DNA of 49,887 bases from Tardiphaga sp. (lineage in GTDB: Bacteria > Pseudomonadota > Alphaproteobacteria > Rhizobiales > Xanthobacteraceae), in the NCBI GenBank assembly GCA_040512975.1, contig JBEVEC010000153.1:1-49887 (forward strand). Reading direction: 5' to 3'. A model generated the notes under the pieces. The model made no database searches, was not told the DNA's origin, and saw only the letters and a program-made list of their open reading frames with translations. Shown here piece by piece: positions 1,604 to 28,295 of the stretch. Positions within the stretch are counted from its first letter, which is position 1, and every line of letters begins with the position of its first letter. Made by a program: the position numbers and the translations under genes.

Positions 1604-1619
1604 TGGCACGGGTTTCGCT
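1604..1619 (+). promoter_or_regulatory. Sigma54 (-24/-12) promoter of flgFGAH
   Basis: TGGCACGGGTTTCGCT with GG-N10-GC spacing. Predicted +1 is about 1629-1630. Confidence 0.85.
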
Positions 1620-1628
1620 ACTCCTTCT

Positions 1629-1710
1629 GTGAACCGCGGCTTGGGAGAGCTTGAGCGGTTCACGGGATCCACGGTCAGCCTGGGAGGGCGGGTCGCGGAG
1701 CTTAGGGGAG
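1629..1710 (+). ncRNA. Structured 5' leader of flgF, probably the flg-Rhizobiales RNA motif
   Basis: Hairpin 1 has stem GTGAACCGC(1629-1637)/GCGGTTCAC(1655-1663) and loop UGGGAG (1642-1647). Hairpin 2 is GCC-UGGGAG-GGC (1678-1689) within a longer stem. The position upstream of basal-body genes fits the described motif. The family assignment is from memory and was not checked with a covariance model. Confidence 0.7.
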
Positions 1711-1718
1711 ATCAACCG

Positions 1719-2483
1719 ATGGAGAATGCACTTCTCGTCGGCCTGTCGCGCCAGATGACGCTCGAGCGTCAGATGGATGTCGTCGCCAACAATCTTGCGA
1801 ACGTGAACACCGCCGGCTTCAAGGGTGAGAAGTCGCTGTTCGAGGAATATCTCAGCCCGGGCGCCCGCGAGGACAATTTCCGCGGCCGCGATCGCCGCGT
1901 CTCCTTCGTGCAGGACCGCGCCACGCTGCACGACATGGTGAGCGGTCCGGTCGAGCAGACCAAGAACCCGCTCGACGTCGCCATCAAGGGCGACGCCTTC
2001 TTCGCCGTGCAGACCGCCGGCGGCGAGCGCTACACCCGCGACGGCGGCATGCAGATCAACAACCAGGGCCAGCTGGTCAACGTCGCCGGCGCGCCGGTCT
2101 TGGGCACCAACGGCCCGATCGTGTTCCAGCAGACCGACCACGACATCAACATCTCGCCCGACGGCACCGTGACCGTGCTGGAAGGCACCAACCGGGTCGA
2201 CTCGGTACGCGGCAAGCTGCGCATGGTCTCGTTTCCCCAGGCGCAGCAACTCCTAAAGGACGGCAACAACCTGTTCGCGGCCCCCACCGGCGTCACGCCG
2301 CAGGCCTCGACCACCGCGACCGTCAATCAGGGCTTCATCGAAAAGTCGAACGTCAATTCGGTCACCGAAATGACGCGCATGATCGACGTCAGCCGCGCCT
2401 ACACGAACATCTCGGCGATGTTGAACGCGCAGGCCGACCTGCAGAGGTCGGCGATCACCAAACTCGCTGACGTTCCGACCTAA
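1719..2483 (+). CDS. flgF: Flagellar basal-body rod protein FlgF
   Basis: VVANNLANVNTAGFK, PLDVAIKG, YTRDG and EKSNVN motifs. RBS GGGGAG precedes ATG 1719. Confidence 0.95.
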   Translation: MENALLVGLSRQMTLERQMDVVANNLANVNTAGFKGEKSLFEEYLSPGAREDNFRGRDRRVSFVQDRATLHDMVSGPVEQTKNPLDVAIKGDAFFAVQTAGGERYTRDGGMQINNQGQLVNVAGAPVLGTNGPIVFQQTDHDINISPDGTVTVLEGTNRVDSVRGKLRMVSFPQAQQLLKDGNNLFAAPTGVTPQASTTATVNQGFIEKSNVNSVTEMTRMIDVSRAYTNISAMLNAQADLQRSAITKLADVPT

Positions 2484-2494
2484 GGACCCCAACC

Positions 2495-3283
2495 ATGCGC
2501 GCTCTTTACACCGCAGCGACGGGGATGGCGGCCCAGGAACTCAACGTCCAGGTCATCTCCAACAATATCGCCAACATGCGTACCACCGGCTACAAAAAGC
2601 AGCGGGCCGCATTCCAGGACCTGATCTACGACCACATCACCCGCGTCGGCGCCCAGGCGTCGGACCAGGGCACGATGATCCCGGTCGGCGTCGACATCGG
2701 CGGCGGCGTGAAGACCGTCGGCACCCCGCGTTTGATGACCCAGGGCACGCTGTCGACCACCGGCGGCGACCTCGACGTCGCCGTGCGCGGCGAGGGCTTC
2801 TTCAAGATCCAGATGACCGACGGCACCTTCACCTATACCCGTGACGGTACGTTCTCGCTGGACTCGCAGGGCCGCATCGTCAACGCCCAGGGCAACCTGC
2901 TGCAGCCGACCATCACCGTTCCGACGGGCGCCTCGCAGCTCACCATCAATGCCGGCGGCTCGGTCTCGGTGCTGGTGCCCGGTTCGACCACGCCTACCGT
3001 GCTCGGCACCATCAGCCTGACGCGCTTCATCAACAAGGCCGGCCTCAGCCCGATCGGCGACAACAATTTCGTGGAATCGCCGGCCTCCGGCGCGCCGCAG
3101 GACGGCGTCGCCAATGCCGACGGCTTCGGCGATCTGCAGCAGCGCAATCTCGAACAGGCCAATGTCGAAGTCGTCACTGAAATCTCCGACCTGATCGCCG
3201 CCCAGCGCGCCTACGAGATGAACGCCAAGGTGATCAGCGCCGCCGACCAGATGCTGCAGTCCGCATCCGCCATGTTCCGCTGA
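2495..3283 (+). CDS. flgG: Flagellar basal-body distal rod protein FlgG
   Basis: MRALYTAATGM, ISNNIANMRTTGYKK, YTRDG, LEQANVEVV and AQRAYEMN motifs. Confidence 0.97.
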   Translation: MRALYTAATGMAAQELNVQVISNNIANMRTTGYKKQRAAFQDLIYDHITRVGAQASDQGTMIPVGVDIGGGVKTVGTPRLMTQGTLSTTGGDLDVAVRGEGFFKIQMTDGTFTYTRDGTFSLDSQGRIVNAQGNLLQPTITVPTGASQLTINAGGSVSVLVPGSTTPTVLGTISLTRFINKAGLSPIGDNNFVESPASGAPQDGVANADGFGDLQQRNLEQANVEVVTEISDLIAAQRAYEMNAKVISAADQMLQSASAMFR

Positions 3284-3288
3284 GGACG

Positions 3289-4401
3289 ATGATCATGACC
3301 ATCACCATGCGCTCCCTGCTGCTGGCCTCCGCGCTGCTCACCGCCGGCGCCACCGCGGCGCTCGGCCAGGCCCGCACCGGCGACCCGATCGCAGCACCCG
3401 TGCTGCGCGCCAATGTCGTCGTCACCGGCGACGTGGTGCGGATCGGCGACGTGATCGACAATGCCGGCCCGACCGCGAACATCGCGATCTACCGCGCCCC
3501 CGATCTCGGCACCATCGGCACGCTGCCGACCGCCCAGGTCATCGCGGCGCTGCGCGCGCATCAGGTGATCGGTGTCGACACCGGCGACCTGCGCACGATT
3601 TCGGTAACCCGGCAGTCGCGCAGCATCGACTCCCGCGACATCCAGAATGAGATCGCCTCCGCGCTCGAGCATCGCAACGGCCTCGGCGACGGCGCCAACC
3701 TTACGGTGACCTTCGACAACGACGTCCAGACCCTGCAGCTCGACGCTGCCAACACCGGCGCGCTGGAGCCCGTCGCGACGCGCTACGACACGCGTAGCGG
3801 GCGCTTCGACATCACCTTCACGATCGGCAACGACAACAACGCGCCGGCGATGAAGCTGCGCTTCACCGGCACCGCCATCGAGACCGTCGAAGCCGCCGTG
3901 CTGGCCCGCGCCCTTGATCGCAATGAAATCGTCAAGGCCTCCGACGTCATCGTCGAGCGGCGGCCGAAATCCGAAGTCGGCAATGACGCCGCGACCCGCG
4001 ACCGCGCCGTCGGCCTCCAGACCCGCCGCGCGCTGCGCGCAGGACAAGCCATCCGCGTCGCCGATCTCGCCAAGCCGGACCTCGTGGTGCGCGACCAGCC
4101 GGTGACCCTGATCTACGAGTCCGCCGGACTGTACCTCACCATCCGCGGCAAGGCCGTGGAGTCCGGCACCGAAGGCGACGTCGTCAATGTACTGAACCTG
4201 CAGTCGAAGCGGACCGTCGCCGGCGTCGTGGTCGGCCGCGGCCAGGTCGCCGTCTCCGCCCCGACGCCGCGCCTGCCGATGAACGCCTCTCCCAATGTTG
4301 CCCCTGCCGCCGACGCTCCCCCGGCCAAGCTCTCCCAGGCAACAGCACCGGTGGCGGTCGCCGCCAACGAACCGAAGCCCGTTTCCCGTAGAGCCGAGTA
4401 A
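3289..4401 (+). CDS. flgA: Flagellar P-ring formation chaperone FlgA
   Basis: Signal peptide and a SAF-like C-terminal region (LVVRDQPVTL...GKAVESGTEGDVVNVLNLQSKR). Located between flgG and flgH, with an Ala/Pro-rich tail. Confidence 0.9.
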   Translation: MIMTITMRSLLLASALLTAGATAALGQARTGDPIAAPVLRANVVVTGDVVRIGDVIDNAGPTANIAIYRAPDLGTIGTLPTAQVIAALRAHQVIGVDTGDLRTISVTRQSRSIDSRDIQNEIASALEHRNGLGDGANLTVTFDNDVQTLQLDAANTGALEPVATRYDTRSGRFDITFTIGNDNNAPAMKLRFTGTAIETVEAAVLARALDRNEIVKASDVIVERRPKSEVGNDAATRDRAVGLQTRRALRAGQAIRVADLAKPDLVVRDQPVTLIYESAGLYLTIRGKAVESGTEGDVVNVLNLQSKRTVAGVVVGRGQVAVSAPTPRLPMNASPNVAPAADAPPAKLSQATAPVAVAANEPKPVSRRAE

Positions 4402-4406
4402 AACCG

Positions 4407-5159
4407 ATGTTGTCCTTCAATCGCTCGTTTTCGACCGCCGCAGCATTGCTCGCGACCGGGCTTGCCGCGTCGGGCTGCTCGTCGATCGACCGCCTCGCTT
4501 CGATCGGCGAGAAGCCGGCGCTGAGCGCGATCGAGAACCCGACGGCGCAGCCCGGCTACAAGCCGGTGCAGATGCCGATGCCGACGCCGGAAGTCGCGTC
4601 CTACAACGCCAACTCGCTGTGGCGCAACGGATCGCGCGCCTTCTTCAAGGACCAGCGCGCGCGGCAGATCGGCGACATCCTCACCATCACGGTGAACTTC
4701 ACCGACAAGGCCAATATCGCCAACGAAACCCAGCGCAGCCGCACCTCGTCGGAAGATTCGGGCATCACCGATTTCGCCGGCAGCAAGCTGCTCAGCGGCT
4801 CCGCCGCATCGGTGCTGCCGGGCCGCCTGCTGAGCGCCGACGGCTCCTCGTCGAGCGACGGCAAGGGCTCGGTGGCGCGCCAGGAAAACCTGCAGACCAG
4901 CGTCGCCGCCGTGGTCACACAGCTATTGCCCAACGGCAACCTGGTGGTCGAAGGCAAGCAGGAGATCCGCGTCAATTACGAAATCCGCGAACTGATCGTG
5001 GCCGGCATCGTGCGTCCGGAGGACATCCAGAGCGACAACACCATCGACAGTTCGAAGATCGCGCAGGCCCGCATTGCCTATGGCGGCCGCGGCCAGATCA
5101 CCGACGTCCAGCAACCGCGTTACGGCCAGCAGGTGATGGACGTGCTGCTGCCGTTCTAA
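4407..5159 (+). CDS. flgH: Flagellar L-ring lipoprotein FlgH
   Basis: Lipobox (AASGC), FFKDQRARQIGDILTI, LPNGNLVVEG and GIVRPEDI motifs, ending LPF. Confidence 0.97.
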   Translation: MLSFNRSFSTAAALLATGLAASGCSSIDRLASIGEKPALSAIENPTAQPGYKPVQMPMPTPEVASYNANSLWRNGSRAFFKDQRARQIGDILTITVNFTDKANIANETQRSRTSSEDSGITDFAGSKLLSGSAASVLPGRLLSADGSSSSDGKGSVARQENLQTSVAAVVTQLLPNGNLVVEGKQEIRVNYEIRELIVAGIVRPEDIQSDNTIDSSKIAQARIAYGGRGQITDVQQPRYGQQVMDVLLPF

Positions 5160-5255
5160 CGCTCACGAGCTCCCACATGGCATCGTGCTCCCACGCGATG
5201 CGGTGTACCAAGCGACGACCTCCGGCAGCTCCCCTGCCGGGGGTCGTTGTTGTTT
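5160..5255 (+). ncRNA. Candidate 3'-UTR structured RNA with CUCCC loops, ending in the flgFGAH intrinsic terminator
   Basis: CTCCCA at 5170-5175. Hairpin GCATCGTG-CTCCCA-CGCGATGC at 5180-5201. Terminator-like hairpin at 5212-5250 with loop CTCCC, followed by a T-rich tract. G-U pairs favour the + strand. Confidence 0.5.
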
Positions 5256-5271: not shown

Positions 5272-5357
5272 GTAGCCCGGATGGAGCGTAGCGCAATCCG
5301 GGACTCACCCATCGCAGAGCCGCTGTCCCGGATTGCGCTACGCTCCATCCGGGCTAC
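5272..5357. repeat. Inverted pair of GTAG-family REP elements
   Basis: GTAGCCCGGATGGAGCGTAGCGCAATCCGGGA ... TCCCGGATTGCGCTACGCTCCATCCGGGCTAC, a perfect inverted repeat between convergent genes. Confidence 0.9.
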
Positions 5358-5360
5358 AGG

Positions 5361-6149
5361 TCACGCCTTGAAATCGACCGTCACACGGCCGAGGCCAGAC
5401 AACTCCAACACGACATCATCGCCGGGACTGAGCCAAATCGTCTGCACCAGGCTGCCGGTCAGCACGAACTCACCCTTGCGCAACGCTCTGCCGTGAGCGG
5501 CAAGATGATTGGCGAGCCAGGCCAGCGCATGATGCGGATGGCCGAGCACATCGGCGCCGGTGCCGCGCCCGGTCTCCACGCCGTTGATAACAGCGCGGCC
5601 GACGACCGAGGTGAGATCCGGCGCCTGCGCGCGCGGCACGGCCATGCCAAGTACGCAGCCGGCGGCAAAGAAATCATCCGCGATCAGCGTCGCGGCATCC
5701 ATGCCGCGCCAGTCGGCATAGCGGTCGTCGACGATCTCGATCGCGGGAAAATACGCCTCGATGAATGGCGCGACATTGTCCGCGGTGAACGGCTCGGCGG
5801 AGGCCACGAGATCGCTGCCCATCCGCACGGCGATCTCGCATTCGACACCGACGCGGACGTAGTCGCCGTAACGCAGCGACGCGCCGGAGGCGTGCACGCC
5901 GGCCATGTAGAGACCGCCGGCGCAAGGGTGTTCGATGCCGAGATAGTGCTGCATGACGGCGCTGGTGCAGCCGATCTTGTAGCCGACCTGGGCGCCGAAA
6001 TCCGGCGACAGCAGATGGTGCAGCGCGTCCTGGACGCGGTAGCCGTCGGCCTCGTCATGCGGGACGCCGTCGGGCGGCAGCGGCGCCAGTGCGGTGCGGT
6101 TGAGGCGGACGTATGCGAGGATTTCGGCGATCGCCAGATGCTTTTCCAT
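5361..6149 (-). CDS. 2-keto-4-pentenoate hydratase / fumarylacetoacetate hydrolase family protein
   Basis: GYKIGCTS, VECEIA, PAIEIVDDR, LGHP..ALAWLAN and VLTGS motifs. Start is 6149 or 6152. Confidence 0.88.
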   Translation of the reverse strand: MEKHLAIAEILAYVRLNRTALAPLPPDGVPHDEADGYRVQDALHHLLSPDFGAQVGYKIGCTSAVMQHYLGIEHPCAGGLYMAGVHASGASLRYGDYVRVGVECEIAVRMGSDLVASAEPFTADNVAPFIEAYFPAIEIVDDRYADWRGMDAATLIADDFFAAGCVLGMAVPRAQAPDLTSVVGRAVINGVETGRGTGADVLGHPHHALAWLANHLAAHGRALRKGEFVLTGSLVQTIWLSPGDDVVLELSGLGRVTVDFKA

Positions 6150-6244
6150 CATGTCCCCCACCGGCCGACGCTGGCGCGCCGTTCAGGACAAAGAGGTAGC
6201 GGCGTCTGCCGGGCTTGGCAATGCAGAGGCGATCGGCGCGTCGG

Positions 6245-6508
6245 CTAGCCAAACACCCGGGTGAGATCCTCATGCAACCGCCGCATGCCGGCGGGACCGG
6301 TGAAGATTTCCTTCACCTCGGCCAGCGCTTCGGTGGTCAGGCTTTCCTCGGACCGCGCACCTAGGGCCGCCGTGGCCAGAATACGCGATGCGATGGCTGC
6401 CTGGTTGCACGACGTCCGGTGCTGCGCCGGCACTTTGGCGACCACCTTCTGCAGCACGTTCCGCATTAAGGCGATGGTGTCGGGATCGTAAGATGCGGCA
6501 AGGGGCAT
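6245..6508 (-). CDS. Small helical hypothetical protein (87 aa)
   Basis: Strong RBS GGAGG before MPLAASYDPDTIALMRNVL...IASRILATAALGAR. Resembles small unknown proteins common in Bradyrhizobiaceae. Confidence 0.7.
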   Translation of the reverse strand: MPLAASYDPDTIALMRNVLQKVVAKVPAQHRTSCNQAAIASRILATAALGARSEESLTTEALAEVKEIFTGPAGMRRLHEDLTRVFG

Positions 6509-6713
6509 GGGTTTGTCCTCCCGTTTTGTTATCGTTATCTTTAAAGCCATTGCCAGATCGTTGCGCTCATATTTGCGTGTTTAACGATCGGGCAGATCTT
6601 TGGGTGCGACTGTATATGCGTGTCGAAGTGTGACAGTCGTGTCATCTGAGACTCGAATATCGGAAGAAAATCGGACCGAAACGGTATCACGCTGCTGCGT
6701 TGGGAAATGACAG

Positions 6714-7991
6714 ATGCCGAACATCGATCGTCGCGCTCTTTTGCTGGCAGGCGCAGGCCTTCTGGCAATGCCAGGACGCGCGGCGGCGGGCGTGCCCCAG
6801 AGCGCCGAAGGTACATTCGGCGACAGTGTCGGCGTCAACGTCCACCTCAGCAGCGAGCCCTATTGCAACGACGTCGGTCGCCTGCGCCAGCGTCTTGCTG
6901 ACAGCGGCATCCGGCATCTGCGCGACGAGCTGCGCCCGTCCAACGACATCGGGCAGTGGCGCGCGCTGCACGCCGATCTCGGCATCCGCTTCAATGTCGT
7001 GGTCTCGCCCGCCACCAACACGGTCGCGGAGATGATGGCCTATCTCGACGCGCTCGGCCTCCCCTGCGTGTCCGCCATCGAGGGCCAGAACGAAGGCGAC
7101 AGCGACTGGTTCATGTCGCTGCCGCTCGCCAAGCCCGACTGGACCAAGACGGTGATCGACTATCAGAAGGCATTTCATCAGGCCCTGCGCGCACGCCCGG
7201 ATACCCAGGCGCTGCCGGTCCTGTCGCCGAGCGTGATCGACTGGAAGCCCGCCGACGCCGTGTTGCTGCGCCCGGCCGCCGACTTCTGCGACATCGTGGC
7301 GCTGCATCCCTACGTGCAGCGCGGCCAGGAGCCGGAAACCAATGACGACTACGCGTCGATCGCCTGGTACCTGCACCACATGCGCGACGCCTTCAAACCG
7401 GGCGCTGCGGTGATGGCGACCGAGACCGGTTATTGCAATGCCATTACCACGCCGGGCAGCGGCGTCTCGGAGCGCGCCGCTGCGATCTATCTGCCGCGCA
7501 TGCTGCTGAACAACTATCAACTCGGGATACGCCGCAGCTTCATGTATGAATTCATGAACGGCGGCACCGATCCCAAAGACGGCGAGCAGAACTGGGGACT
7601 GCTGCACAGCGACAGCGCGCCTAAACCGTCCTATCATGCCATCCGGCGGCTCCTCGCCGCGCTGGGCAATGCCCGCATCATGCCCGGCCTCGACAATGGA
7701 TTTAATATCATGGCCCGCTCACCGCGCGCCGACCTGCGGCAGATCGCTCTGCAGGATGACGCCGGCCGCCGCATCCTCGCCCTCTGGCACGCCGCGCGCA
7801 GCTGGGATGCACCGCACGCGCGCGATATCGAGGTCGACGCGCAGCCCGTCGAGATCAACGGCGACGGACGCCCGACGGCGGCATCAATGAACATTCCCAA
7901 CGACGATGACCAGTGGCGCGATCTCGTGCCATCGCAAACCGGCATCACCGTCCCCGTCGCCGACAAGGTCGTTCTGCTACGCCTGGCGTGA
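6714..7991 (+). CDS. Tat-exported clan GH-A-like glycoside hydrolase
   Basis: Twin-arginine signal (IDRRALLLAGAG...AAA). NE acid/base motif (EGQNE), HPY, nucleophile-like ATETGY and WGLL...PKPSY. Confidence 0.75.
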   Translation: MPNIDRRALLLAGAGLLAMPGRAAAGVPQSAEGTFGDSVGVNVHLSSEPYCNDVGRLRQRLADSGIRHLRDELRPSNDIGQWRALHADLGIRFNVVVSPATNTVAEMMAYLDALGLPCVSAIEGQNEGDSDWFMSLPLAKPDWTKTVIDYQKAFHQALRARPDTQALPVLSPSVIDWKPADAVLLRPAADFCDIVALHPYVQRGQEPETNDDYASIAWYLHHMRDAFKPGAAVMATETGYCNAITTPGSGVSERAAAIYLPRMLLNNYQLGIRRSFMYEFMNGGTDPKDGEQNWGLLHSDSAPKPSYHAIRRLLAALGNARIMPGLDNGFNIMARSPRADLRQIALQDDAGRRILALWHAARSWDAPHARDIEVDAQPVEINGDGRPTAASMNIPNDDDQWRDLVPSQTGITVPVADKVVLLRLA

Positions 7992-8230
7992 GCGCGCTGC
8001 ATCTGCCGCAGCTCCTCGCCTTGCGGCGCTTGCAGGACGCGAACTCGTCCAGGGCATCTGTCAGGGGAGGCATATTACCTTGCTCGCCCGACCGGCAGCC
8101 CGAATGAGAGCAATAGGCAAGGATCAGCCTTAAATCGGCACGCGGTCGGAGGCCGGACACACTAGATGATCTCTTGTCGAGTGGCGCAACCGCCTTGGAC
8201 AGAATTCGGCCAGCAAGAAAGATGATCCCC

Positions 8231-8983
8231 ATGAAATTATCCGGAAAAATCGCCGTCGTGACCGGCGCATCGAGTGGCATCGGTGCCGGCATTGCAAAGG
8301 CGCTCGCGGCTGAAGGCGCCACGGTCGCCGTCAACTATTCCACCAGCCAGGCCGGCGCCGACGCTGTCGTCGCCGCGATCAAAGCTGCCGGCGGGACGGC
8401 GATGGCCATCCAAGCGGACATGAGCCGATCCGCTGACGTCGCCCGGCTGTTTGACCAGGTGATCGCCGATCACGGCAGGCTGGACATATTGGTGAACAAT
8501 GCCGGCGTCGCGGTGTTTGAGATGGTCACCGACATGACGGAAGATGCTTTTCACAAGCAGTTCAACATCAACGTGCTCGGCTATTTTCTGGCGATCCGCG
8601 AAGCGGTGAAGCATTTCGGCGCCGCCGGCGGCAGCATCGTCAATATCAGTTCGATCCTCAGCACCGACCCCTATCCCGCATCGAGCGTCTATGCGGCGAC
8701 GAAGGGCGCCGTGGATACCATGACCTTCGCGCTGGCCCGCGAACTCGGGCCGCGCAACATCCGCGTCAACGCGATCCTGCCGGGCCACACCAACACGCCC
8801 GCGACCGACGGCAACTTTGCCGGCGAATTCGGCAAGACGCTGATTGCCGGCACGCCGCTTGGCCGCTTCGGCGAACCCGAGGACATTGCGCCGGTCGCGG
8901 TGTTCCTGGCGTCCGAGGATTCGCACTGGGTCACCGGTGAGTCGCTTCGTGCTGCCGGCGGCGTTCGCGGCGTGGGTTACTAG
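8231..8983 (+). CDS. Short-chain dehydrogenase/reductase
   Basis: TGASSGIG, NNAG, YAATK and PLGRFGEPEDIA motifs. Confidence 0.93.
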   Translation: MKLSGKIAVVTGASSGIGAGIAKALAAEGATVAVNYSTSQAGADAVVAAIKAAGGTAMAIQADMSRSADVARLFDQVIADHGRLDILVNNAGVAVFEMVTDMTEDAFHKQFNINVLGYFLAIREAVKHFGAAGGSIVNISSILSTDPYPASSVYAATKGAVDTMTFALARELGPRNIRVNAILPGHTNTPATDGNFAGEFGKTLIAGTPLGRFGEPEDIAPVAVFLASEDSHWVTGESLRAAGGVRGVGY

Positions 8984-9049
8984 CCGGCGTTCTGCTCGAC
9001 GCGCGTGGCGGCGTCCGGGTCGAACCGGACGCCGCCACATGTCGACAGG

Positions 9050-9355
9050 TCAGGCGATCAGCGCGTGCCGGACCGGAGAGACCGACCAGCTGACCGTGGA
9101 CTGATCGATCGCCGCGTGGACCGGCGAATGCGCCATCTCGGTGACAACGCCCGCTGCGGCCTTGCGGCCTGCTTTGGCCGAAGCCCAGACCAGCACGTCG
9201 ACGACCGTGCCATCTGCGCGCTGGCAGATCCGGCGGGAGACGAAACCCGGCTGATCGATCAGCCAGGCATCGATGTCCTCGTTGGCCTTGATGAAGCCCC
9301 TCATGGTCAAACCGGCTGCGAGGCGGAAGGTCGTGACCTCGACGGCTTCGGTCAT
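9050..9355 (-). CDS. Small hypothetical protein, probable dimeric alpha-beta barrel (ABM-like)
   Basis: MTEAVEVTTFRL...WLIDQPGFVSRR...DVLVWAS. Its start overlaps the upstream stop (ATGA), indicating translational coupling. Confidence 0.7.
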   Translation of the reverse strand: MTEAVEVTTFRLAAGLTMRGFIKANEDIDAWLIDQPGFVSRRICQRADGTVVDVLVWASAKAGRKAAAGVVTEMAHSPVHAAIDQSTVSWSVSPVRHALIA

Positions 9356-10365
9356 GACGGGTTGCCCATCCGACGGACACCCGCGGTCCCGTCCGAGATC
9401 CGCGTGTCGGCAATGGTTTCCGCAAAGCCGTTGCCGAACAGGCCGGCCGGAGTCTGGAAGCCGGGACGCCGTTCGCCAGCGAGCACCCGGCGGGCTGCCT
9501 CTGCGGAAGCCATCGGCGTGAACGTGTAGCCGTTGACGGTATCCAGCACCTCGCGGACGATCGTCCCGTCTGCGCCCGTCACTTCGACTGCCGCCTGGTA
9601 GCGGTTGGCGTCGCGCTGTTCGGCAGTCGGGCCATCGGGCCATGCCGACATGTCTCCGTCAGGAAATGCGCCTCCTGATACATGAACGAAGGTCTCGATG
9701 TCTGGAATGGTCGTTGCGCGGTGGATGGTCAGAAGATCCGACAGCGTCACCGGAAAGCAGGACGCGGCGCCTGCGCCGAAATCGAAGTCCCGAAGCTCCT
9801 GCGGACTGCGGGCCACCAGTTTTCCTCCGACCAGCCGGAGGCAGTCGGTCATGTTTTCCGTAGCGCTAATGGCCGATCCCCGCGACATCGGGCCCGTCAC
9901 ATGAAGCGCGATGCGGATCTGCGTCGGCTCGGCGACACGATGCGCAGCGTGCCCGGCAAGGCATCCAAGCATGGCGACGCTGCCGCCGCTGCCTGGCAAC
10001 AGCAACACGCCGGCAACCTTGGCCTCCTGGTCGAGCGCGTCGGCCAACGTGTAGCTGTCGAGTTCGGCGGCGATGTCGAGATAGTCGGTGCCGCAACGGA
10101 TCGCCGCCTTCATGAACGGCTTTGCCGTGCGCAGATAAGGCCCGGCGCAGTTCAGCAGAACCGAGATGCCGGAGAGCGCCGCGTCGATTCCGGCCGCGTC
10201 CTCGACGTCAAACACGCGATACTTCACGCCCAGTGTGGCGGCGAGCTGCTTGAGCGGCGCCTCGGCACGACCTGCGATGACGAGATCAAGCCGGGCGGTT
10301 TTCGCATGTTCGGCCGCCATGCGACCGGTGTAGCCGGTAGCACCGTAGATCATCATTGTTTTCAT
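9352..10365 (-). CDS. Saccharopine dehydrogenase-like NAD(P)-dependent oxidoreductase
   Basis: IYGATGYTG, LNCAGPY, YLDIAAE, NGYTFT and GFQTPA motifs. Confidence 0.88.
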   Translation of the reverse strand: MKTMMIYGATGYTGRMAAEHAKTARLDLVIAGRAEAPLKQLAATLGVKYRVFDVEDAAGIDAALSGISVLLNCAGPYLRTAKPFMKAAIRCGTDYLDIAAELDSYTLADALDQEAKVAGVLLLPGSGGSVAMLGCLAGHAAHRVAEPTQIRIALHVTGPMSRGSAISATENMTDCLRLVGGKLVARSPQELRDFDFGAGAASCFPVTLSDLLTIHRATTIPDIETFVHVSGGAFPDGDMSAWPDGPTAEQRDANRYQAAVEVTGADGTIVREVLDTVNGYTFTPMASAEAARRVLAGERRPGFQTPAGLFGNGFAETIADTRISDGTAGVRRMGNPS

Positions 10366-10388
10366 GTGCTGTTACTCTGTCGTTGGTT

Positions 10389-11132
10389 TCAGATGACGTA
10401 GCCGCCGGCGATCTCGATGGTCTGCGCATTGACCCACGCATTGTCATCGGACAGCAGGCTGGCGATCACACGCCCGACGTCGTCAGGCTCGCCGACGCGC
10501 CCGAGTGCGGTCTGCCCGGCCAGCAGCGTTTCGAATTCGTCATTCAGGCCACCGCCGAGCTCGGTGCGGATCGCGCCGGGCGCCACCGCATTGGCGCGGA
10601 TGCGGCGCGCGCCGAATTCCTTGGCCATGTAGCGCGTCAGCACTTCAAGGCCGCCCTTGAAGGTCGCGTAAGGCGCCACGCCGGCGGTCGCCACGCGCGC
10701 CGTCGCGCTTGAAACGTTCACGATGTGGCCGCCGTCGGCCATCAGCGGCAACAGCGTCTGCGTCAGGAAGAACGGTCCCTTGAGGTGCACATTGAACAGG
10801 CCGTCGAACTCGGCCTCGCTCACCGTGGCGATCGGATTGTAGAGCCCGTAGCCCGCATTGTTGACGAGGTGGTCGAAGTCCATTCGATTCCAGTTCGCGG
10901 CAAGGGCCCCGGCGACGGCGTCGCGAAACGCTGTGAACGACGCGACATCCGCGACGTCAATTTTCAGCGCGACTGCCTTGCCTCCTTCTGCCTGCACGGC
11001 ACGCACGACCTCGTCCGCACCTTCCGGATGGCTGTTGTAGGTGATGATGACATCGCCGCCGCACCGTGCGCATTGCAGGGCCATGCTGCGCCCGAGGCCG
11101 CGGCTTCCGCCAGTGATGATAGTGATTGCCAT
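10389..11132 (-). CDS. Short-chain dehydrogenase/reductase
   Basis: ITGGSRGLG, NNAG, YATFK and ALGRVGEPDD motifs. Start set at MAITII (11132). Confidence 0.92.
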   Translation of the reverse strand: MAITIITGGSRGLGRSMALQCARCGGDVIITYNSHPEGADEVVRAVQAEGGKAVALKIDVADVASFTAFRDAVAGALAANWNRMDFDHLVNNAGYGLYNPIATVSEAEFDGLFNVHLKGPFFLTQTLLPLMADGGHIVNVSSATARVATAGVAPYATFKGGLEVLTRYMAKEFGARRIRANAVAPGAIRTELGGGLNDEFETLLAGQTALGRVGEPDDVGRVIASLLSDDNAWVNAQTIEIAGGYVI

Positions 11133-11265
11133 GTATCGTGCTCCGTATTGTCGATGGCTCAGAGGTACAGCGAAGCCGTGACCGACACCGTCCCCGATCC
11201 TGCCGCGATCTTGCCCATTCCTGCTTTCCGCTTGCGCCTGGCGCCGCGTTGGGCGCAGGTGACGC

Positions 11266-12153
11266 ATGGAAACACGATTGACAGAGCTGCGCGCCTTGGC
11301 GGCGCACGCGCAGAACCGGCGCACCGAAACCGGCATCCCGCGCGTCGCCATGGTGCAGGGTCAGATTCCCGAACATCAACTGGCCGCGGTCTACGACCCG
11401 ATGGTCAACCTGATCCTGCAGGGCTCGAAGTCGATGACGATCGGCGATCGCACGCTGCGCTACGATCCGGCGAGCTATTTTGTGATGTCGATCGATCTGC
11501 CCGCAGTCGGCGCGATCCATGCGGCAACGACCGGTGAGCCTTATCTCGCCGTGAGTCTGACCATCGACCCGAAAGTCGTGGCGCCGATGCTGGCGGACGC
11601 GCCGCCGCCCGATCCGTCCGCGGAGGCCAGACATGGTTTCTCGGTCGCATCGGTCACGCCCGTCATGCTCGACGCCTGGGTCCGGATGCTCCGGCTGATG
11701 GAATCTCCTGCAGACATTCCAGTGCTCGCGCCTGCCTATGAGCGGGAGATCCTATACCGCGTGCTGCAGGGTCCCCATGGCTGGATGCTGCGCGACATCG
11801 CCGTGCCGGACACCGCCCTGTCGCGGGTCCGCCTCGCCATCCAGTGGATCCGCAACAATTTTCGCGATCAGTTGCGCGTCGACAGCCTGGCCGAAATGGC
11901 TGCGATGAGCACCTCCGCCTTTCACCGCCACTTCAAGGCAGCAACTGCGATGAGCCCGCTGCAGTTTCAGAAGCAGATACGCCTGTTGCAGGCGCGCATG
12001 CTGCTGATCGCGGGAGCCCCGACGGCATCCTCGGTGGCGTTTGACGTCGGATACGAAAGCGCCTCGCAGTTCAGCCGCGAATATGCGCGCTTCTTTGGTC
12101 TGCCCCCGGCAAGCGACGTGCTCGCAGTGCAACGCTATATCGGCCGCGGCTAG
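11266..12153 (+). CDS. AraC-family transcriptional regulator (YqhC-like)
   Basis: ILQGSK N-terminal domain and C-terminal HTH (MSTSAFHRHFK...SPLQFQK...VGYESASQFSREY). Divergent from the SDR operon. Confidence 0.93.
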   Translation: METRLTELRALAAHAQNRRTETGIPRVAMVQGQIPEHQLAAVYDPMVNLILQGSKSMTIGDRTLRYDPASYFVMSIDLPAVGAIHAATTGEPYLAVSLTIDPKVVAPMLADAPPPDPSAEARHGFSVASVTPVMLDAWVRMLRLMESPADIPVLAPAYEREILYRVLQGPHGWMLRDIAVPDTALSRVRLAIQWIRNNFRDQLRVDSLAEMAAMSTSAFHRHFKAATAMSPLQFQKQIRLLQARMLLIAGAPTASSVAFDVGYESASQFSREYARFFGLPPASDVLAVQRYIGRG

Positions 12154-13337: not shown

Positions 13338-13432
13338 CAGCCGGCAGTTTCGGGCGTCGGCACGTCCCGCTGACCAGGGCGGTTTAAAAGATTTTTATCG
13401 TTATATCATGCACTTACCTCGCAAATACGCGG

Positions 13433-13448
13433 TGGCACAGGCCTCGCA
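13433..13448 (+). promoter_or_regulatory. Sigma54 promoter of the flgI operon
   Basis: TGGCACAGGCCTCGCA with GG-N10-GC spacing. An IHF-like TATCATGCACTTA lies just upstream. Confidence 0.85.
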
Positions 13449-13513
13449 TAGGGATGGCTGGACCGTGGTCATGGGAGTGACCGCAGGACCGGGACCTCAG
13501 CGGGGAGCAGAGG

Positions 13514-14638
13514 ATGCGTCGTTACCCTTCGACCGGATTCGTACAGGCGGCCTGCACGGCGCTGATGGCGCTGGTGCTGTCGGCTGTGTCCGCGCACGCC
13601 ACGTCGCGGATCAAGGATCTGGCCAATATCGAAGGCGTGCGCCAGAACCAGTTGATCGGCTACGGCCTGGTGGTCGGCCTCAACGGCACCGGCGACACCC
13701 TCAACAACATCCCCTTCACCAAGCAGTCGCTGCAGGCGATGCTGGAACGCATGGGCGTCAACATCCGCGGGGCCACCATCCGCACCGGCAACGTGGCGGC
13801 GGTCATGGTCACCGGCAATTTGCCCGCCTTCGGCACCCAGGGCACCCGGATGGACGTCACGGTCTCCGCGCTCGGCGACGCCAAAAACCTGATGGGCGGC
13901 ACCCTGCTTGTCACCCCCCTGCTCGGCGCCGACGGCAACGTCTATGCGGTGGCCCAAGGTTCGCTCGCCATCGGCGGCTTCGCTGCCGAGGGCGCCGCAG
14001 CGTCGGTCACCCGCGGCGTGCCGACGGTCGGCCGCATTGCCAACGGCGCCATCATCGAGCGCGAGATCGAGTTCGCGCTGAACCGCCTGCCCAATGTCCG
14101 CCTTGCGCTGCGCAACCCGGACTTCACCACCGCCAAGCGGGTCGCCGCCGCGGTCAACGACTTCCTCGGCAGCAAGACCGCCGAGCCGATCGACCCCTCC
14201 ACGGTGCAGATGTCGATCCCGCCGGAGTTCAAGGGCAACGTGGTCGCCCTGCTCACCGAGATCGAGCAGCTGCAGGTCGAGCCGGATCTCGCCGCCAAGA
14301 TCATCATCGACGAGCGCTCCGGCATCATCGTGATGGGCCGCGACGTCCGCGTCGCCACCGTGGCGGTGGCGCAGGGCAATCTGACGGTGACGATTTCCGA
14401 TAGCGCAAATGTGAGCCAGCCCAACGCCCTCTCCAACGGCCGCACGGTGGTGACCCCCACCACCCGGGTCGGCGTCACCGAGGACGGCAAGAAGCTCGCT
14501 GTGGTCAAGGACGGTGTCTCGCTACAGCAGCTGGTCGACGGCCTCAACGGCCTCGGCATCGGCCCGCGCGATCTGATCGGCATCCTGCAGGCGATCAAGG
14601 CCGCCGGCGCGATCCAGGCCGACATCGAGGTGATGTGA
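13514..14638 (+). CDS. flgI: Flagellar P-ring protein FlgI
   Basis: RIKDLANIEGVRQNQLIGYGLVVGLNGTGD, GGTLLVTPL and ILQAIKAAGA motifs. Confidence 0.98.
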   Translation: MRRYPSTGFVQAACTALMALVLSAVSAHATSRIKDLANIEGVRQNQLIGYGLVVGLNGTGDTLNNIPFTKQSLQAMLERMGVNIRGATIRTGNVAAVMVTGNLPAFGTQGTRMDVTVSALGDAKNLMGGTLLVTPLLGADGNVYAVAQGSLAIGGFAAEGAAASVTRGVPTVGRIANGAIIEREIEFALNRLPNVRLALRNPDFTTAKRVAAAVNDFLGSKTAEPIDPSTVQMSIPPEFKGNVVALLTEIEQLQVEPDLAAKIIIDERSGIIVMGRDVRVATVAVAQGNLTVTISDSANVSQPNALSNGRTVVTPTTRVGVTEDGKKLAVVKDGVSLQQLVDGLNGLGIGPRDLIGILQAIKAAGAIQADIEVM

Positions 14639-15018
14639 TGACCGCCATCAGCAATTCCGTCGCCGCCTACCAGGCCAAGAACCCGAGCTACAACGGCCGC
14701 CCCGATCTCGCATTGACCGAGGCGCTGACCAAAGTTTCGCCCGAGACGCAAAAGAAGATCCGGGGCCAGGCTCAGGACTTCGAAGCCATGTTCATCAATT
14801 CGATGTTCTCGCAGATGACGAGCGGCCTCAAGGGCGACGGCCCGTTCGGCGACACCGTCGGCACCGGCGCGTGGCGCTCGATGCTGACCGATCAATATTC
14901 CAAGGACTTCGCCAAGGCCGGCGGCGTCGGGGTTTCCCAGCAAGTCTATCGTTCGCTCATCATGCAGCAGGCCCAGGGTTCTTCGACCGCAGGCCAGCTC
15001 ACCAACCGCGTCAGCTGA
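14638..15018 (+). CDS. flgJ: Short FlgJ (rod-binding domain only)
   Basis: AQDFEAMFINSMFSQM...WRSMLTDQY...AKAGGVG. No muramidase domain. TGATG coupling to flgI. Confidence 0.85.
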   Translation: MTAISNSVAAYQAKNPSYNGRPDLALTEALTKVSPETQKKIRGQAQDFEAMFINSMFSQMTSGLKGDGPFGDTVGTGAWRSMLTDQYSKDFAKAGGVGVSQQVYRSLIMQQAQGSSTAGQLTNRVS

Positions 15019-26365: not shown

Positions 26366-28222
26366 CTATCGCATGACGTTCAGAAGATCCTGGACCATGG
26401 TGTTCGCCGTGGTGATCACCTTGGTGTTCGCGGAGTAAGCCTGCTGGGTCACGATCAGCTTGGTGAATTCGTCGGCGATGTCGGTGTTGGACGATTCCAG
26501 CGACGAGCCGGAGATGCTGCCGCCCTTGCCGTAGATCGGCTCGCCGGATTCGTTGGTGACCTCGAAGGCGCCGCCGTCGATGCGCTTCAGGAAGTCGGCG
26601 CCGTTGAAGGTCGCAATGCTGACTTCGGCGAGATCGATGTTGCGGCCGTTGGAGTAGCTGCCGACGACGCGGCCCTCGTTGCTCACCGACACGCTTTCGA
26701 GCTGGCCGGCGGCGTAGCCGTCCTGCTGCAGCTGGTTGACCTGGACGTTGCCGTTGGTGTCGGCGAACTGCGTCAGGCCGCCGGTGCCGAAGGCCATGGT
26801 GACGTTGCCGAGGCTGGTACCGGACACCGTGAGGCCGGTCAGCGTGATCTGGCCGACCACCGGCTGCATCTGGCCGTTGGTGCCGAACTTGAAGTCGGTG
26901 CCGACGTTCTGCCACGCCACGGTGTTGCCGGTGGCGCCGGCATTGACCTGGTAGAACAGGTTCCAGGTGTCGGTGCCGCCCTGCGTCGCCGACTCGACCT
27001 TGGCCCAGCGGAACTGGAGCGAGACCGGCGCGCCGTTGCCGTCATAGGCGGTGGTGGCGCCGCCGCTGATCGACTCGTCAAGGAAGGTCTGGTTGTCGCT
27101 GCCGACCACGATGCCGGTGCCGGGCGTGCCGCCGCCGCCGCGCAGGCCGGTCACGGTGCCGGAGAAGCCCATCGCCTGGAATGCGGCCGTGGCCGTGGTG
27201 GTCGAACCGGCGGCAATGCTGAAGTCGTTGGCCGTGCCGGAGTTGAGCGTGATCGCGCCGCCTGCAACCTTGGACGCGGGCGATGGCGAGGTGTTGCCGG
27301 TCAGGGTGTCGATCGTGGTCAGCAGCGAGCCGACGGTGGCCGTCGAGAGGTCGACAAAGGTGGTCCCGGCGACCGCGGCCGGCTGGGTGCCGGTATAGAA
27401 CTGGATCGTCTTGGTGGTGGTGACGCCGGTATTGGTGGTCTTCAGCACCAGCGTGTCGCCCGAGGCGAAGCCCGCCGGCAGCGTGTTGTTGCCCGACGCG
27501 CTCAACAGCGCCGTGCTCGCGGTGATCGGCTGCGGCGTGGTCTCGAAATCGTTGCGCGCGTTGCCGGTAATGCCGGTGTTGGAGAACGGCGTCGCGGCGG
27601 TGCCGAGCGTGCGCGGATTGGAAACGAAGTCGGCGGGGCGCAGCAATTCCGAACCGGGCACCGAGGTGTCGTGCTTTGTCGTCAGCGGATAGCTGGCGAG
27701 GTTGGCGCGGTAATCGATCTTGGTGGTGGCCTGCGACGGCAGGAAGTCGTTCTGGAAGCGTAGCACCTCCGGCGTGCTGCCCGCCGGGTTGCCGGTCGAC
27801 GGGTCGATCTTGACGCCTTCGAGATAGTAGCCGGCGCCGTTGACGAGGTAGCCGTTCTTGTCGAGCGAGAAGTCGCCGCGCCGGGTGTATTTGTTGACGC
27901 CGTCAAACACCGGCGTGGAGTCCGACACGCTGCCGGGCTTCTGCACGGCGAAGAAGCCGTCGCCGTTGATCGCCATATAGGTGGCGACCGAGGCTGACTG
28001 CACCGAGCCCGCGATAGTGTTGGTGCTGCGCGATCCCGCAGTGACCGAGCCCGCGAGCTGCGCGTCGTTGCCGGTGTCGGGGATGAGATCCAAAAAGCTG
28101 GTGTCGATCCGCTTGAAGGCGGTGGTCTGCGAGTTGGCGATGTTGCCGGAAATGTTTTCCAGCGCGTAGGAGTTCGCCCGCAGGCCCGCAACGGACGTGG
28201 TGAGAGCGCCGAAGATACCCAT
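26366..28222 (-). CDS. flgE: Flagellar hook protein FlgE
   Basis: ISGNIANSQTTAFK, YTRRGDF and LESSNTDIADEFTKLIVTQQAYSAN. Start MGIFG at 28222 follows RBS GGAG. Confidence 0.95.
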   Translation of the reverse strand: MGIFGALTTSVAGLRANSYALENISGNIANSQTTAFKRIDTSFLDLIPDTGNDAQLAGSVTAGSRSTNTIAGSVQSASVATYMAINGDGFFAVQKPGSVSDSTPVFDGVNKYTRRGDFSLDKNGYLVNGAGYYLEGVKIDPSTGNPAGSTPEVLRFQNDFLPSQATTKIDYRANLASYPLTTKHDTSVPGSELLRPADFVSNPRTLGTAATPFSNTGITGNARNDFETTPQPITASTALLSASGNNTLPAGFASGDTLVLKTTNTGVTTTKTIQFYTGTQPAAVAGTTFVDLSTATVGSLLTTIDTLTGNTSPSPASKVAGGAITLNSGTANDFSIAAGSTTTATAAFQAMGFSGTVTGLRGGGGTPGTGIVVGSDNQTFLDESISGGATTAYDGNGAPVSLQFRWAKVESATQGGTDTWNLFYQVNAGATGNTVAWQNVGTDFKFGTNGQMQPVVGQITLTGLTVSGTSLGNVTMAFGTGGLTQFADTNGNVQVNQLQQDGYAAGQLESVSVSNEGRVVGSYSNGRNIDLAEVSIATFNGADFLKRIDGGAFEVTNESGEPIYGKGGSISGSSLESSNTDIADEFTKLIVTQQAYSANTKVITTANTMVQDLLNVMR

Positions 28223-28295
28223 TACATCGTCTCCAACTTCGATCCGGGCGGCCCGCCGGGTTGCCAAATTCATGGCCGCTGTCGGAGACGTTGTC

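Follow-up and report, generated by a model that had tools for sequence, protein, structure and literature searches.

A C-rich RNA element downstream of flgH as a candidate partner of the flgF and flgI leaders in Rhizobiales

Background

Occlusion of the SD sequence normally blocks the initiation of translation, and E. coli has small RNAs derived from flagellar mRNA 3' ends. Among the described systems closest to the element reported here, a structured C-rich RNA at the 3' end of flgH, is FlmE (CJnc230) of Campylobacter, which in the available portions of the reports (PMC11187230, PMC4626219) is a small RNA that arises by processing of a sigma54-dependent mRNA, that of flgE, at its 3' end; the same sources present FlmR (CJnc170)/CjNC1/CjNC4 as small RNAs with predicted targets in the 5' UTRs of flagellar genes under sigma54. 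The targets repressed by FlmE are flgM and a second regulator, not its own operon, and its phylum, parent gene and targets differ from those of our element; the Campylobacter RNAs were compared with it by description. AbcR1 and AbcR2 (ar15, RF02345), known from Brucella, Agrobacterium and Sinorhizobium, resemble the element in using a CUCCCA loop motif (M1) for regulation by base-pairing, but in the accessible text (PMC5461406) they regulate transporter mRNAs, whereas the element is tied to the flgH stop. The closest mechanical model is the Staphylococcus RNAIII, several UCCC loops of which contact the SD regions of the rot and coa mRNAs through loop-loop interactions and thereby repress translation (PMC3861533, in part), although that RNA, its organism and its regulon are unrelated to those considered here. 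Agrobacterium QfsR is likewise an sRNA reported to pair with the 5' regions of flgF and flgI, but excerpts of that study (bioRxiv 10.1101/533729) describe it as Ti-plasmid encoded, with a pairing site that includes GAGG, as raising the output of flg reporters, and as acting on the single polycistronic flagellar mRNA of the Rhizobiaceae.

On the side of the leaders, RF01736 was entered as a probable cis-regulatory RNA other than a riboswitch, with no partner named in the available part of its description (Weinberg 2010, PMC2864571). The literature covered, which included few subscription papers, yielded no description of the flgH 3' element, of the flgI leader or of a partner for RF01736. What is new here is a co-evolving candidate partner of the leaders; the flgF leader, as RF01736, was already known.

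Results and discussion

Organization of the flagellar locus

The window, that is, the entire 49,887-nucleotide stretch of Tardiphaga DNA analysed here, contains a gene set including flgFGAH, dksA, fliX and flgI-flgJ (NCBIfam). The features relevant to this study are as follows.

1604-1619, plus strand: sigma54-type site of the flgFGAH operon (sequence)
1630-1764, plus strand: flg-Rhizobiales RNA RF01736, the flgF leader (cmscan, 110.7 bits against a cut-off of 55)
1719-5159, plus strand: flgF, flgG, flgA, flgH operon, with the flgH stop at 5157-5159 (NCBIfam)
5167-5255, plus strand: flgH 3' element, a candidate 3'-UTR-derived small RNA (folding, conservation, covariation)
13433-13448, plus strand: sigma54-type -24/-12 site of flgI, TGGCACAGGCCTCGCA (sequence; conserved among relatives)
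13458-13492, plus strand: flgI leader hairpin P1, loop (U)GGGA(G) at 13472-13477 (folding; covariation)
13495-13513, plus strand: flgI leader hairpin P2, abutting the ATG (folding; covariation)
13514-14638, plus strand: flgI, flagellar P-ring protein (NCBIfam PRK05303/PRK12790 matches, flgI/flgJ, above cut-off)
14635-15018, plus strand: flgJ, following flgI (NCBIfam)

About 7 kb of non-flagellar genes (5361-12153; hydratase-like, SDR oxidoreductase, AraC regulator) separate flgH from dksA, and this interval differs widely across relatives. An 80-nt near-perfect palindrome (5275-5354), which we take to be REP-like, lies directly 3' of the flgH 3' element; in relatives, similar mobile palindromes are often inserted between the flgH stop and the element, which is itself retained. 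In two genomes flgI (G010, G020) and in a third flgH (G023) are each broken into separate matches, which points to frameshifts or to errors in sequencing; the RNA elements checked there are intact.

The flgF and flgI leaders

The flgF leader is a member of the known Rfam family RF01736, a relationship that the initial annotation of this DNA had not recognized. It displays UGGGAG loops at 1642 and 1681, followed by the SD AGGGGAG at 1704-1710. An RF01736 match is present in 107 of the 150 genomes of the family to which the window's genome belongs (hereafter the home family); of the 43 that do not have one, 42 also lack this type of FlgH at E 1e-55, and the remaining one, in which FlgH is present, has both loops of the leader as well as the flgH 3' element.

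Downstream of the sigma54-type site of flgI, the sequence GTGGTCA-TGGGAG-TGACCGC (13465-13484) is present as first described and is predicted to form a hairpin, but its stem is longer than previously noted, reaching 13458-13492, and in place of the UGGGAG hexaloop folding predicts a GGGA tetraloop closed by a U-G pair. The flgI transcription start predicted from standard sigma54 spacing (~13459) coincides with P1. The following GGGGAGC (13502-13508) is the flgI SD, of which GGGGAG (13502-13507) falls in the predicted loop of P2. Its 7-nt Watson-Crick complementarity to GCTCCCC at 5228-5234, which the initial annotation had pointed out, is borne out by the sequence; however, as GGGGAG lies near 39 of 1237 roughly called starts in the window's genome, one such complement alone is weak evidence.

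Conservation upstream of flgI orthologs is seen, with UGGGAG kept in 19 of 20 other leaders from the same genus and replaced by UGGCAG in one. In an alignment of 18 leaders picked out of 34, 94% of cells are paired and double changes occur at 4 of 11 pairs, a covariation score that was reached by none of 500 shuffles and also exceeds slid controls. GGGAG is found in 53 of 55 home-family flgI leaders, 26 of which have two sites, and in 22 of 60 from the rest of the Rhizobiales. The flgI leader is thus a conserved, covarying two-hairpin structure. It resembles RF01736 in its GGGGAG SD and in its position, as a 5' leader, ahead of a basal-body gene of the flagellum in Rhizobiales, but differs in that two UGGGAG-loop hairpins precede the SD in RF01736, whereas in flgI there is one and the second hairpin bears the SD itself. 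It gives no match to RF01736 up to E 10 (cmscan over 13380-13640; cut-off 55 bits) and is not among the six genome-wide matches of that family.

The window shows no enrichment of TGGGAG (13 occurrences against 20.7 expected). In the genome, 3 of 704 occurrences sit in a stem of at least 7 pairs, and the sole one after a sigma54-like site is the flgI hairpin. GGGAG is an ordinary SD (180 of 1237 starts), but its occurrence both at the SD and further upstream is confined to 4 of 1237 starts, two of them flgI and flgF, these counts of starts being based on crude gene calls from a genome that is 82% complete.

The flgH 3' element

The element begins with the single-stranded GAGCUCCCA (5167-5175), followed by a hairpin with loop CUCCCA (5188-5193) and a terminator-like hairpin (5211-5251) with loop CUCCC (5229-5233) and a U-rich tail; its C-rich motifs are, in order, CUCCCA, CUCCCA and CUCCCC, and the fold has z=-6.1. 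Among 23 loci of the same genus, 2 of them interrupted by contig ends, the first and last motifs are kept in all 21 complete copies and the middle loop in 19. Across 18 sequences picked out of 53, 95% of cells are paired, with double changes at 8 of 23 pairs. The motifs of leader and element are predicted to be unpaired on both sides (means 0.88 and 0.92). The CUCCC RNA that had been proposed 3' of flgH is accordingly a real conserved structure, and it co-occurs and covaries with the motif of the flgF leader (see below).

The element pattern was recovered in at least 80 loci, including Bradyrhizobium, Rhodopseudomonas and Afipia, and among the matches listed 79 of 80 adjoin flgH. It has no Rfam match at the cut-off (sub-threshold hits only, to Scr3202 and 6C) and none to the RF02345 covariance model, and it belongs to none of the FlmE, AbcR, RNAIII and QfsR families. 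The window's own genome, at 82% completeness, shows no clear second copy. The best other match (E=0.0095), at G000:C169:7186-7281 on the minus strand (L416), is a single hairpin with a CUCCCC loop and no Rfam match. The element has several traits expected of a 3'-UTR-derived small RNA, namely a conserved structure after the stop, a terminator-like end on the sense strand and an exposed seed complementary to its candidate targets.

The strand on which the element operates bears directly on its interpretation. The initial annotation had offered, as an alternative reader of the loops, a GGA-loop-binding protein, which if of CsrA type is not supported, the CsrA family (PF02599) having been found in none of 28 genomes searched, with positive controls; a CsrA target with a CsrB-type decoy was rejected on this ground. 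A more general form of the idea is that some RNA-binding protein reads the GGGAG loops and that the minus strand of the element is a CsrB-like decoy. Because the reverse complement of the element bears the same GGGAG loops, co-occurrence and co-variation with the leaders are predicted by this arrangement too; furthermore, the downstream genes (5361-6161) are convergent and on the minus strand, the UGGCAG loop of the flgI leader in G001 is still of GNRA type, and folding energy does not favour the plus strand, nor does it discriminate between the strands, the plus strand coming out ahead in 17 of 41 cases and in 31 of 120. In B. diazoefficiens USDA 110 there is a weak minus-strand start at 6,400,214, placed by approximate offset mapping about 200 nt beyond the element; the same table lists no start for the element nor for flgF or flgI, and is therefore uninformative on the plus strand.

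Set against this, in 112 of 120 elements the plus strand leaves the motifs better exposed than the minus strand does, a U-tract follows the last motif in 57 of 120 while an A-tract precedes the first in 16, and no more than 150 nt separate the element from the flgH stop in 112 of 120, dksA being more than 500 nt off in 61 of 101. Internal G-U pairs outnumber A-C pairs by 53 to 13 overall and by 44 to 2 in the home family, as against 9 to 11 outside it; an earlier count was noisy (89 vs 64, with 67 vs 47 in a known-strand control), and the criterion was tightened afterwards. The sequence downstream of the element is not conserved, so that a minus-strand promoter common to these genomes is not apparent. 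Support for the plus strand is good in the home family and weaker beyond it, and together with the lack of CsrA these observations make a minus-strand decoy quite unlikely.

Co-occurrence and co-variation of leader and element

We read 160 Rhizobiales loci, of which 157 were scored and 3 were without a usable leader or 3' region; 69 are from the home family, nearly all picked by their RF01736 match, and 88 were picked by FlgH only. The leader motif was taken as GGGAG or GGGGAA and the element as at least two CUCCC/UUCCCC within 300 nt of the flgH stop, definitions that were fixed after the sequences had been viewed and that replaced a noisier hairpin-based score (92 both, 32 neither, 33 discordant of 157). 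By motif counts, 120 loci have both, 28 neither, 8 the leader motif only, with one CUCCC remaining in each, and 1 the element only; presence is concordant in 33 of 35 families. The 88 loci picked by FlgH give 54, 26, 7 and 1, respectively. Beyond the Rhizobiales, 20 of 64 matches were sampled, and among the 19 flgF leaders read the motif is missing from 18.

Such a pattern might arise if the leaders were no more than structured 5' ends rich in SD sequence, and the element no more than a terminator whose loops are C-rich, their match reflecting common ancestry and GC content. The use of GGGAG as an ordinary SD, the correlation of element count with GC (rho 0.54) and a tree-corrected test that falls short of significance are in line with this: on the FlgG+FlgH tree there are 6 independent pairs on strong branches, about 4 changing in the same direction and none in the opposite (p=0.125), and tests of seed type rest on fewer than 6 pairs. 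The opposite-strand control, however, is empty (0 of 88 loci), and co-occurrence persists in both GC-rich and GC-poor subsets, with co-presence in an AT-rich family (f47) and co-absence in GC-rich lineages. Two genomes nested inside positive clades (G079, G110) have lost both the flgF leader motif and the element, and relatives without the leader motif mostly have a plain terminator-like hairpin with no repeated C-rich loops. The loop sequences also change in pairs: in family f8, all 6 leaders have GGGGAAG and 5 of the 6 elements have CUUCCCC, and G270 combines UGGGAG with CUCCCA, whereas G226, from the family of G270, shows the four-G/four-C form. We therefore regard shared ancestry and composition as a very unlikely explanation.

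Outside the home family, UGGGAG and CUCCCA are both present in 7 loci, both absent in 47 and discordant in 7 (n=61), and 33 of 70 genomes with UGGGAG leaders have CUCCC(C) only and no CUCCCA. Measured as complement length, the flgF leader matches the element of its own family better than swapped ones (8.66 against 7.62 nt; 19 of 21 families). For the flgI leader the same holds outside the home family (7.58 for own and 6.85 for swapped elements; n=19, p=0.005, a permutation value that, like the others, ignores relatedness), while within it the difference is not significant (p=0.33, n=52). In families f22 (L181-L183) and f53 (L233-L234) the flgF leaders have three G-rich sites, among which UGGGAG is mixed with UGGGGAG or CGGGGAG, and CUCCCA as well as CUCCCC motifs occur in the elements. 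In other orders, L396 (G480) and L407 (G486) have CUCUCCUC-rich tracts after flgH and flgF SD regions of GAGAG type, possibly an analogous pairing through another seed.

The looser association of flgI raises the alternative that the element acts in cis only, the 3' end of the flgFGAH mRNA folding onto its own flgF leader as a timer, with the flgI hairpin independent, vestigial or read by another C-rich small RNA. The element is indeed tracked more tightly by flgF than by flgI. Also counting against a reading of flgI by the element, 24 of 95 element-bearing genomes have a flgI leader without GGGAG, uncompensated changes occur in flgI leaders (loop UGGCAG in G001, SD GGAGAG in G066), and UGGGAG persists before flgI in G079 despite the absence of the element. 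The USDA 110 table has no start near the element, and the clade has other RNAs with C-rich loops (Rhizobiales-2 alignment). On the other hand, 71 of 75 motif-bearing flgI leaders are in element-bearing genomes, own-genome matching of flgI is seen outside the home family, and the window's genome (82% complete) shows neither an AbcR-family RNA (RF02345) nor a clear paralog of the element. A role restricted to cis is hence unlikely. If both leaders are read by the element, flgF looks like the primary target and flgI like a second one, elaborated in the Bradyrhizobium-like clade.

Other flagellar leaders

The flgE leader, which follows a sigma54-type site on the minus strand (28310-28295), had been described as lacking the loop, and we find no GGGAG in it; flgE was accordingly rejected as a target. 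It is predicted to form a long hairpin of its own (28222-28294, minus strand, -33.5 kcal/mol), with the GGAGAC SD region base-paired to GUCUCC; this may represent a distinct control of flgE translation, and the flgE start is likely to be 28222 rather than 28273.

Among flgB leaders, the motif lies close to the start in 2 of the 23 from element-bearing genomes and in 1 of the 6 from other genomes, and the flgB promoter region has TTAA repeats, presumably CtrA-box-like, in place of the sigma54 type; flgB was likewise rejected. The proposal that the motif marks the rod/ring operons at large was hence too broad: it holds for the two sigma54 basal-body operons, flgFGAH and flgI-flgJ, and fails for flgB. 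Two flgB leaders, L445 (G264) and L436 (G058), have two GGGAG/GGGGAA sites each, which suggests lineage-specific recruitment of flgB as a third target.

A model for reading of the leaders

Given the C-rich structure at the end of the operon that changes with the leaders, the element likely acts as a small RNA. We consider it probable, on the strength of the sequence comparisons, that the exposed GGGAG sites of the flgI and flgF leaders are read by the flgH 3' RNA, with a block of the ribosome-binding site and negative feedback as the outcome. Sigma54-dependent transcription of flgFGAH would run through to the element, after which either a nuclease might free a stable RNA of roughly 90 nt or the flgFGAH mRNA might act through its uncleaved 3' end. 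The CUCCCA sites would pair with the upstream UGGGAG loops and the CUCCCC loop with the GGGGAG SD; in this genome CUCCCA offers flgI UGGGAG 6 bp (8 with G-U) and GCUCCCC offers its SD GGGGAGC 7 bp, while flgF presents the element with two UGGGAG loops and AGGGGAG. These seeds are short (6-8 nt), and pairing at two sites would give a specificity beyond the reach of a single anti-SD seed.

On this model, pairing with flgI would necessarily be in trans, and that with flgF either in trans or through a 5'-3' contact within one mRNA. Hfq may assist the pairing; its gene was found in 31 of 31 relatives and not in the 82% complete genome to which the window belongs. With their ribosome-binding sites covered, the synthesis of rod and ring proteins would be turned down, and, since the RNA would come from the same sigma54 wave and cover the SD, we infer a delayed negative feedback. 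Regulation in trans, and with it the coordination of FlgH and FlgI originally suggested, is likewise inferred from the sequences.

Conclusion

In its widest form, which we put forward tentatively, the hypothesis is of an order-wide circuit in which a multi-loop anti-SD RNA from the 3' end of flgFGAH would silence flgF and flgI-flgJ by two-site loop-loop pairing, co-evolving with its targets across about 20 families and representing the missing ligand of RF01736. Listed since 2010 as cis-regulatory, RF01736 gains a second putative target leader, that of flgI, and a specific candidate partner. The variants of leader and element would then constitute natural compensatory pairs of small RNA and target. 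If true, the circuit would be an example of a generic anti-SD seed made specific by multiple loops, and would extend the Caulobacter-type flagellar hierarchy by a layer of RNA control in Rhizobiales that live in soil or in association with plants.
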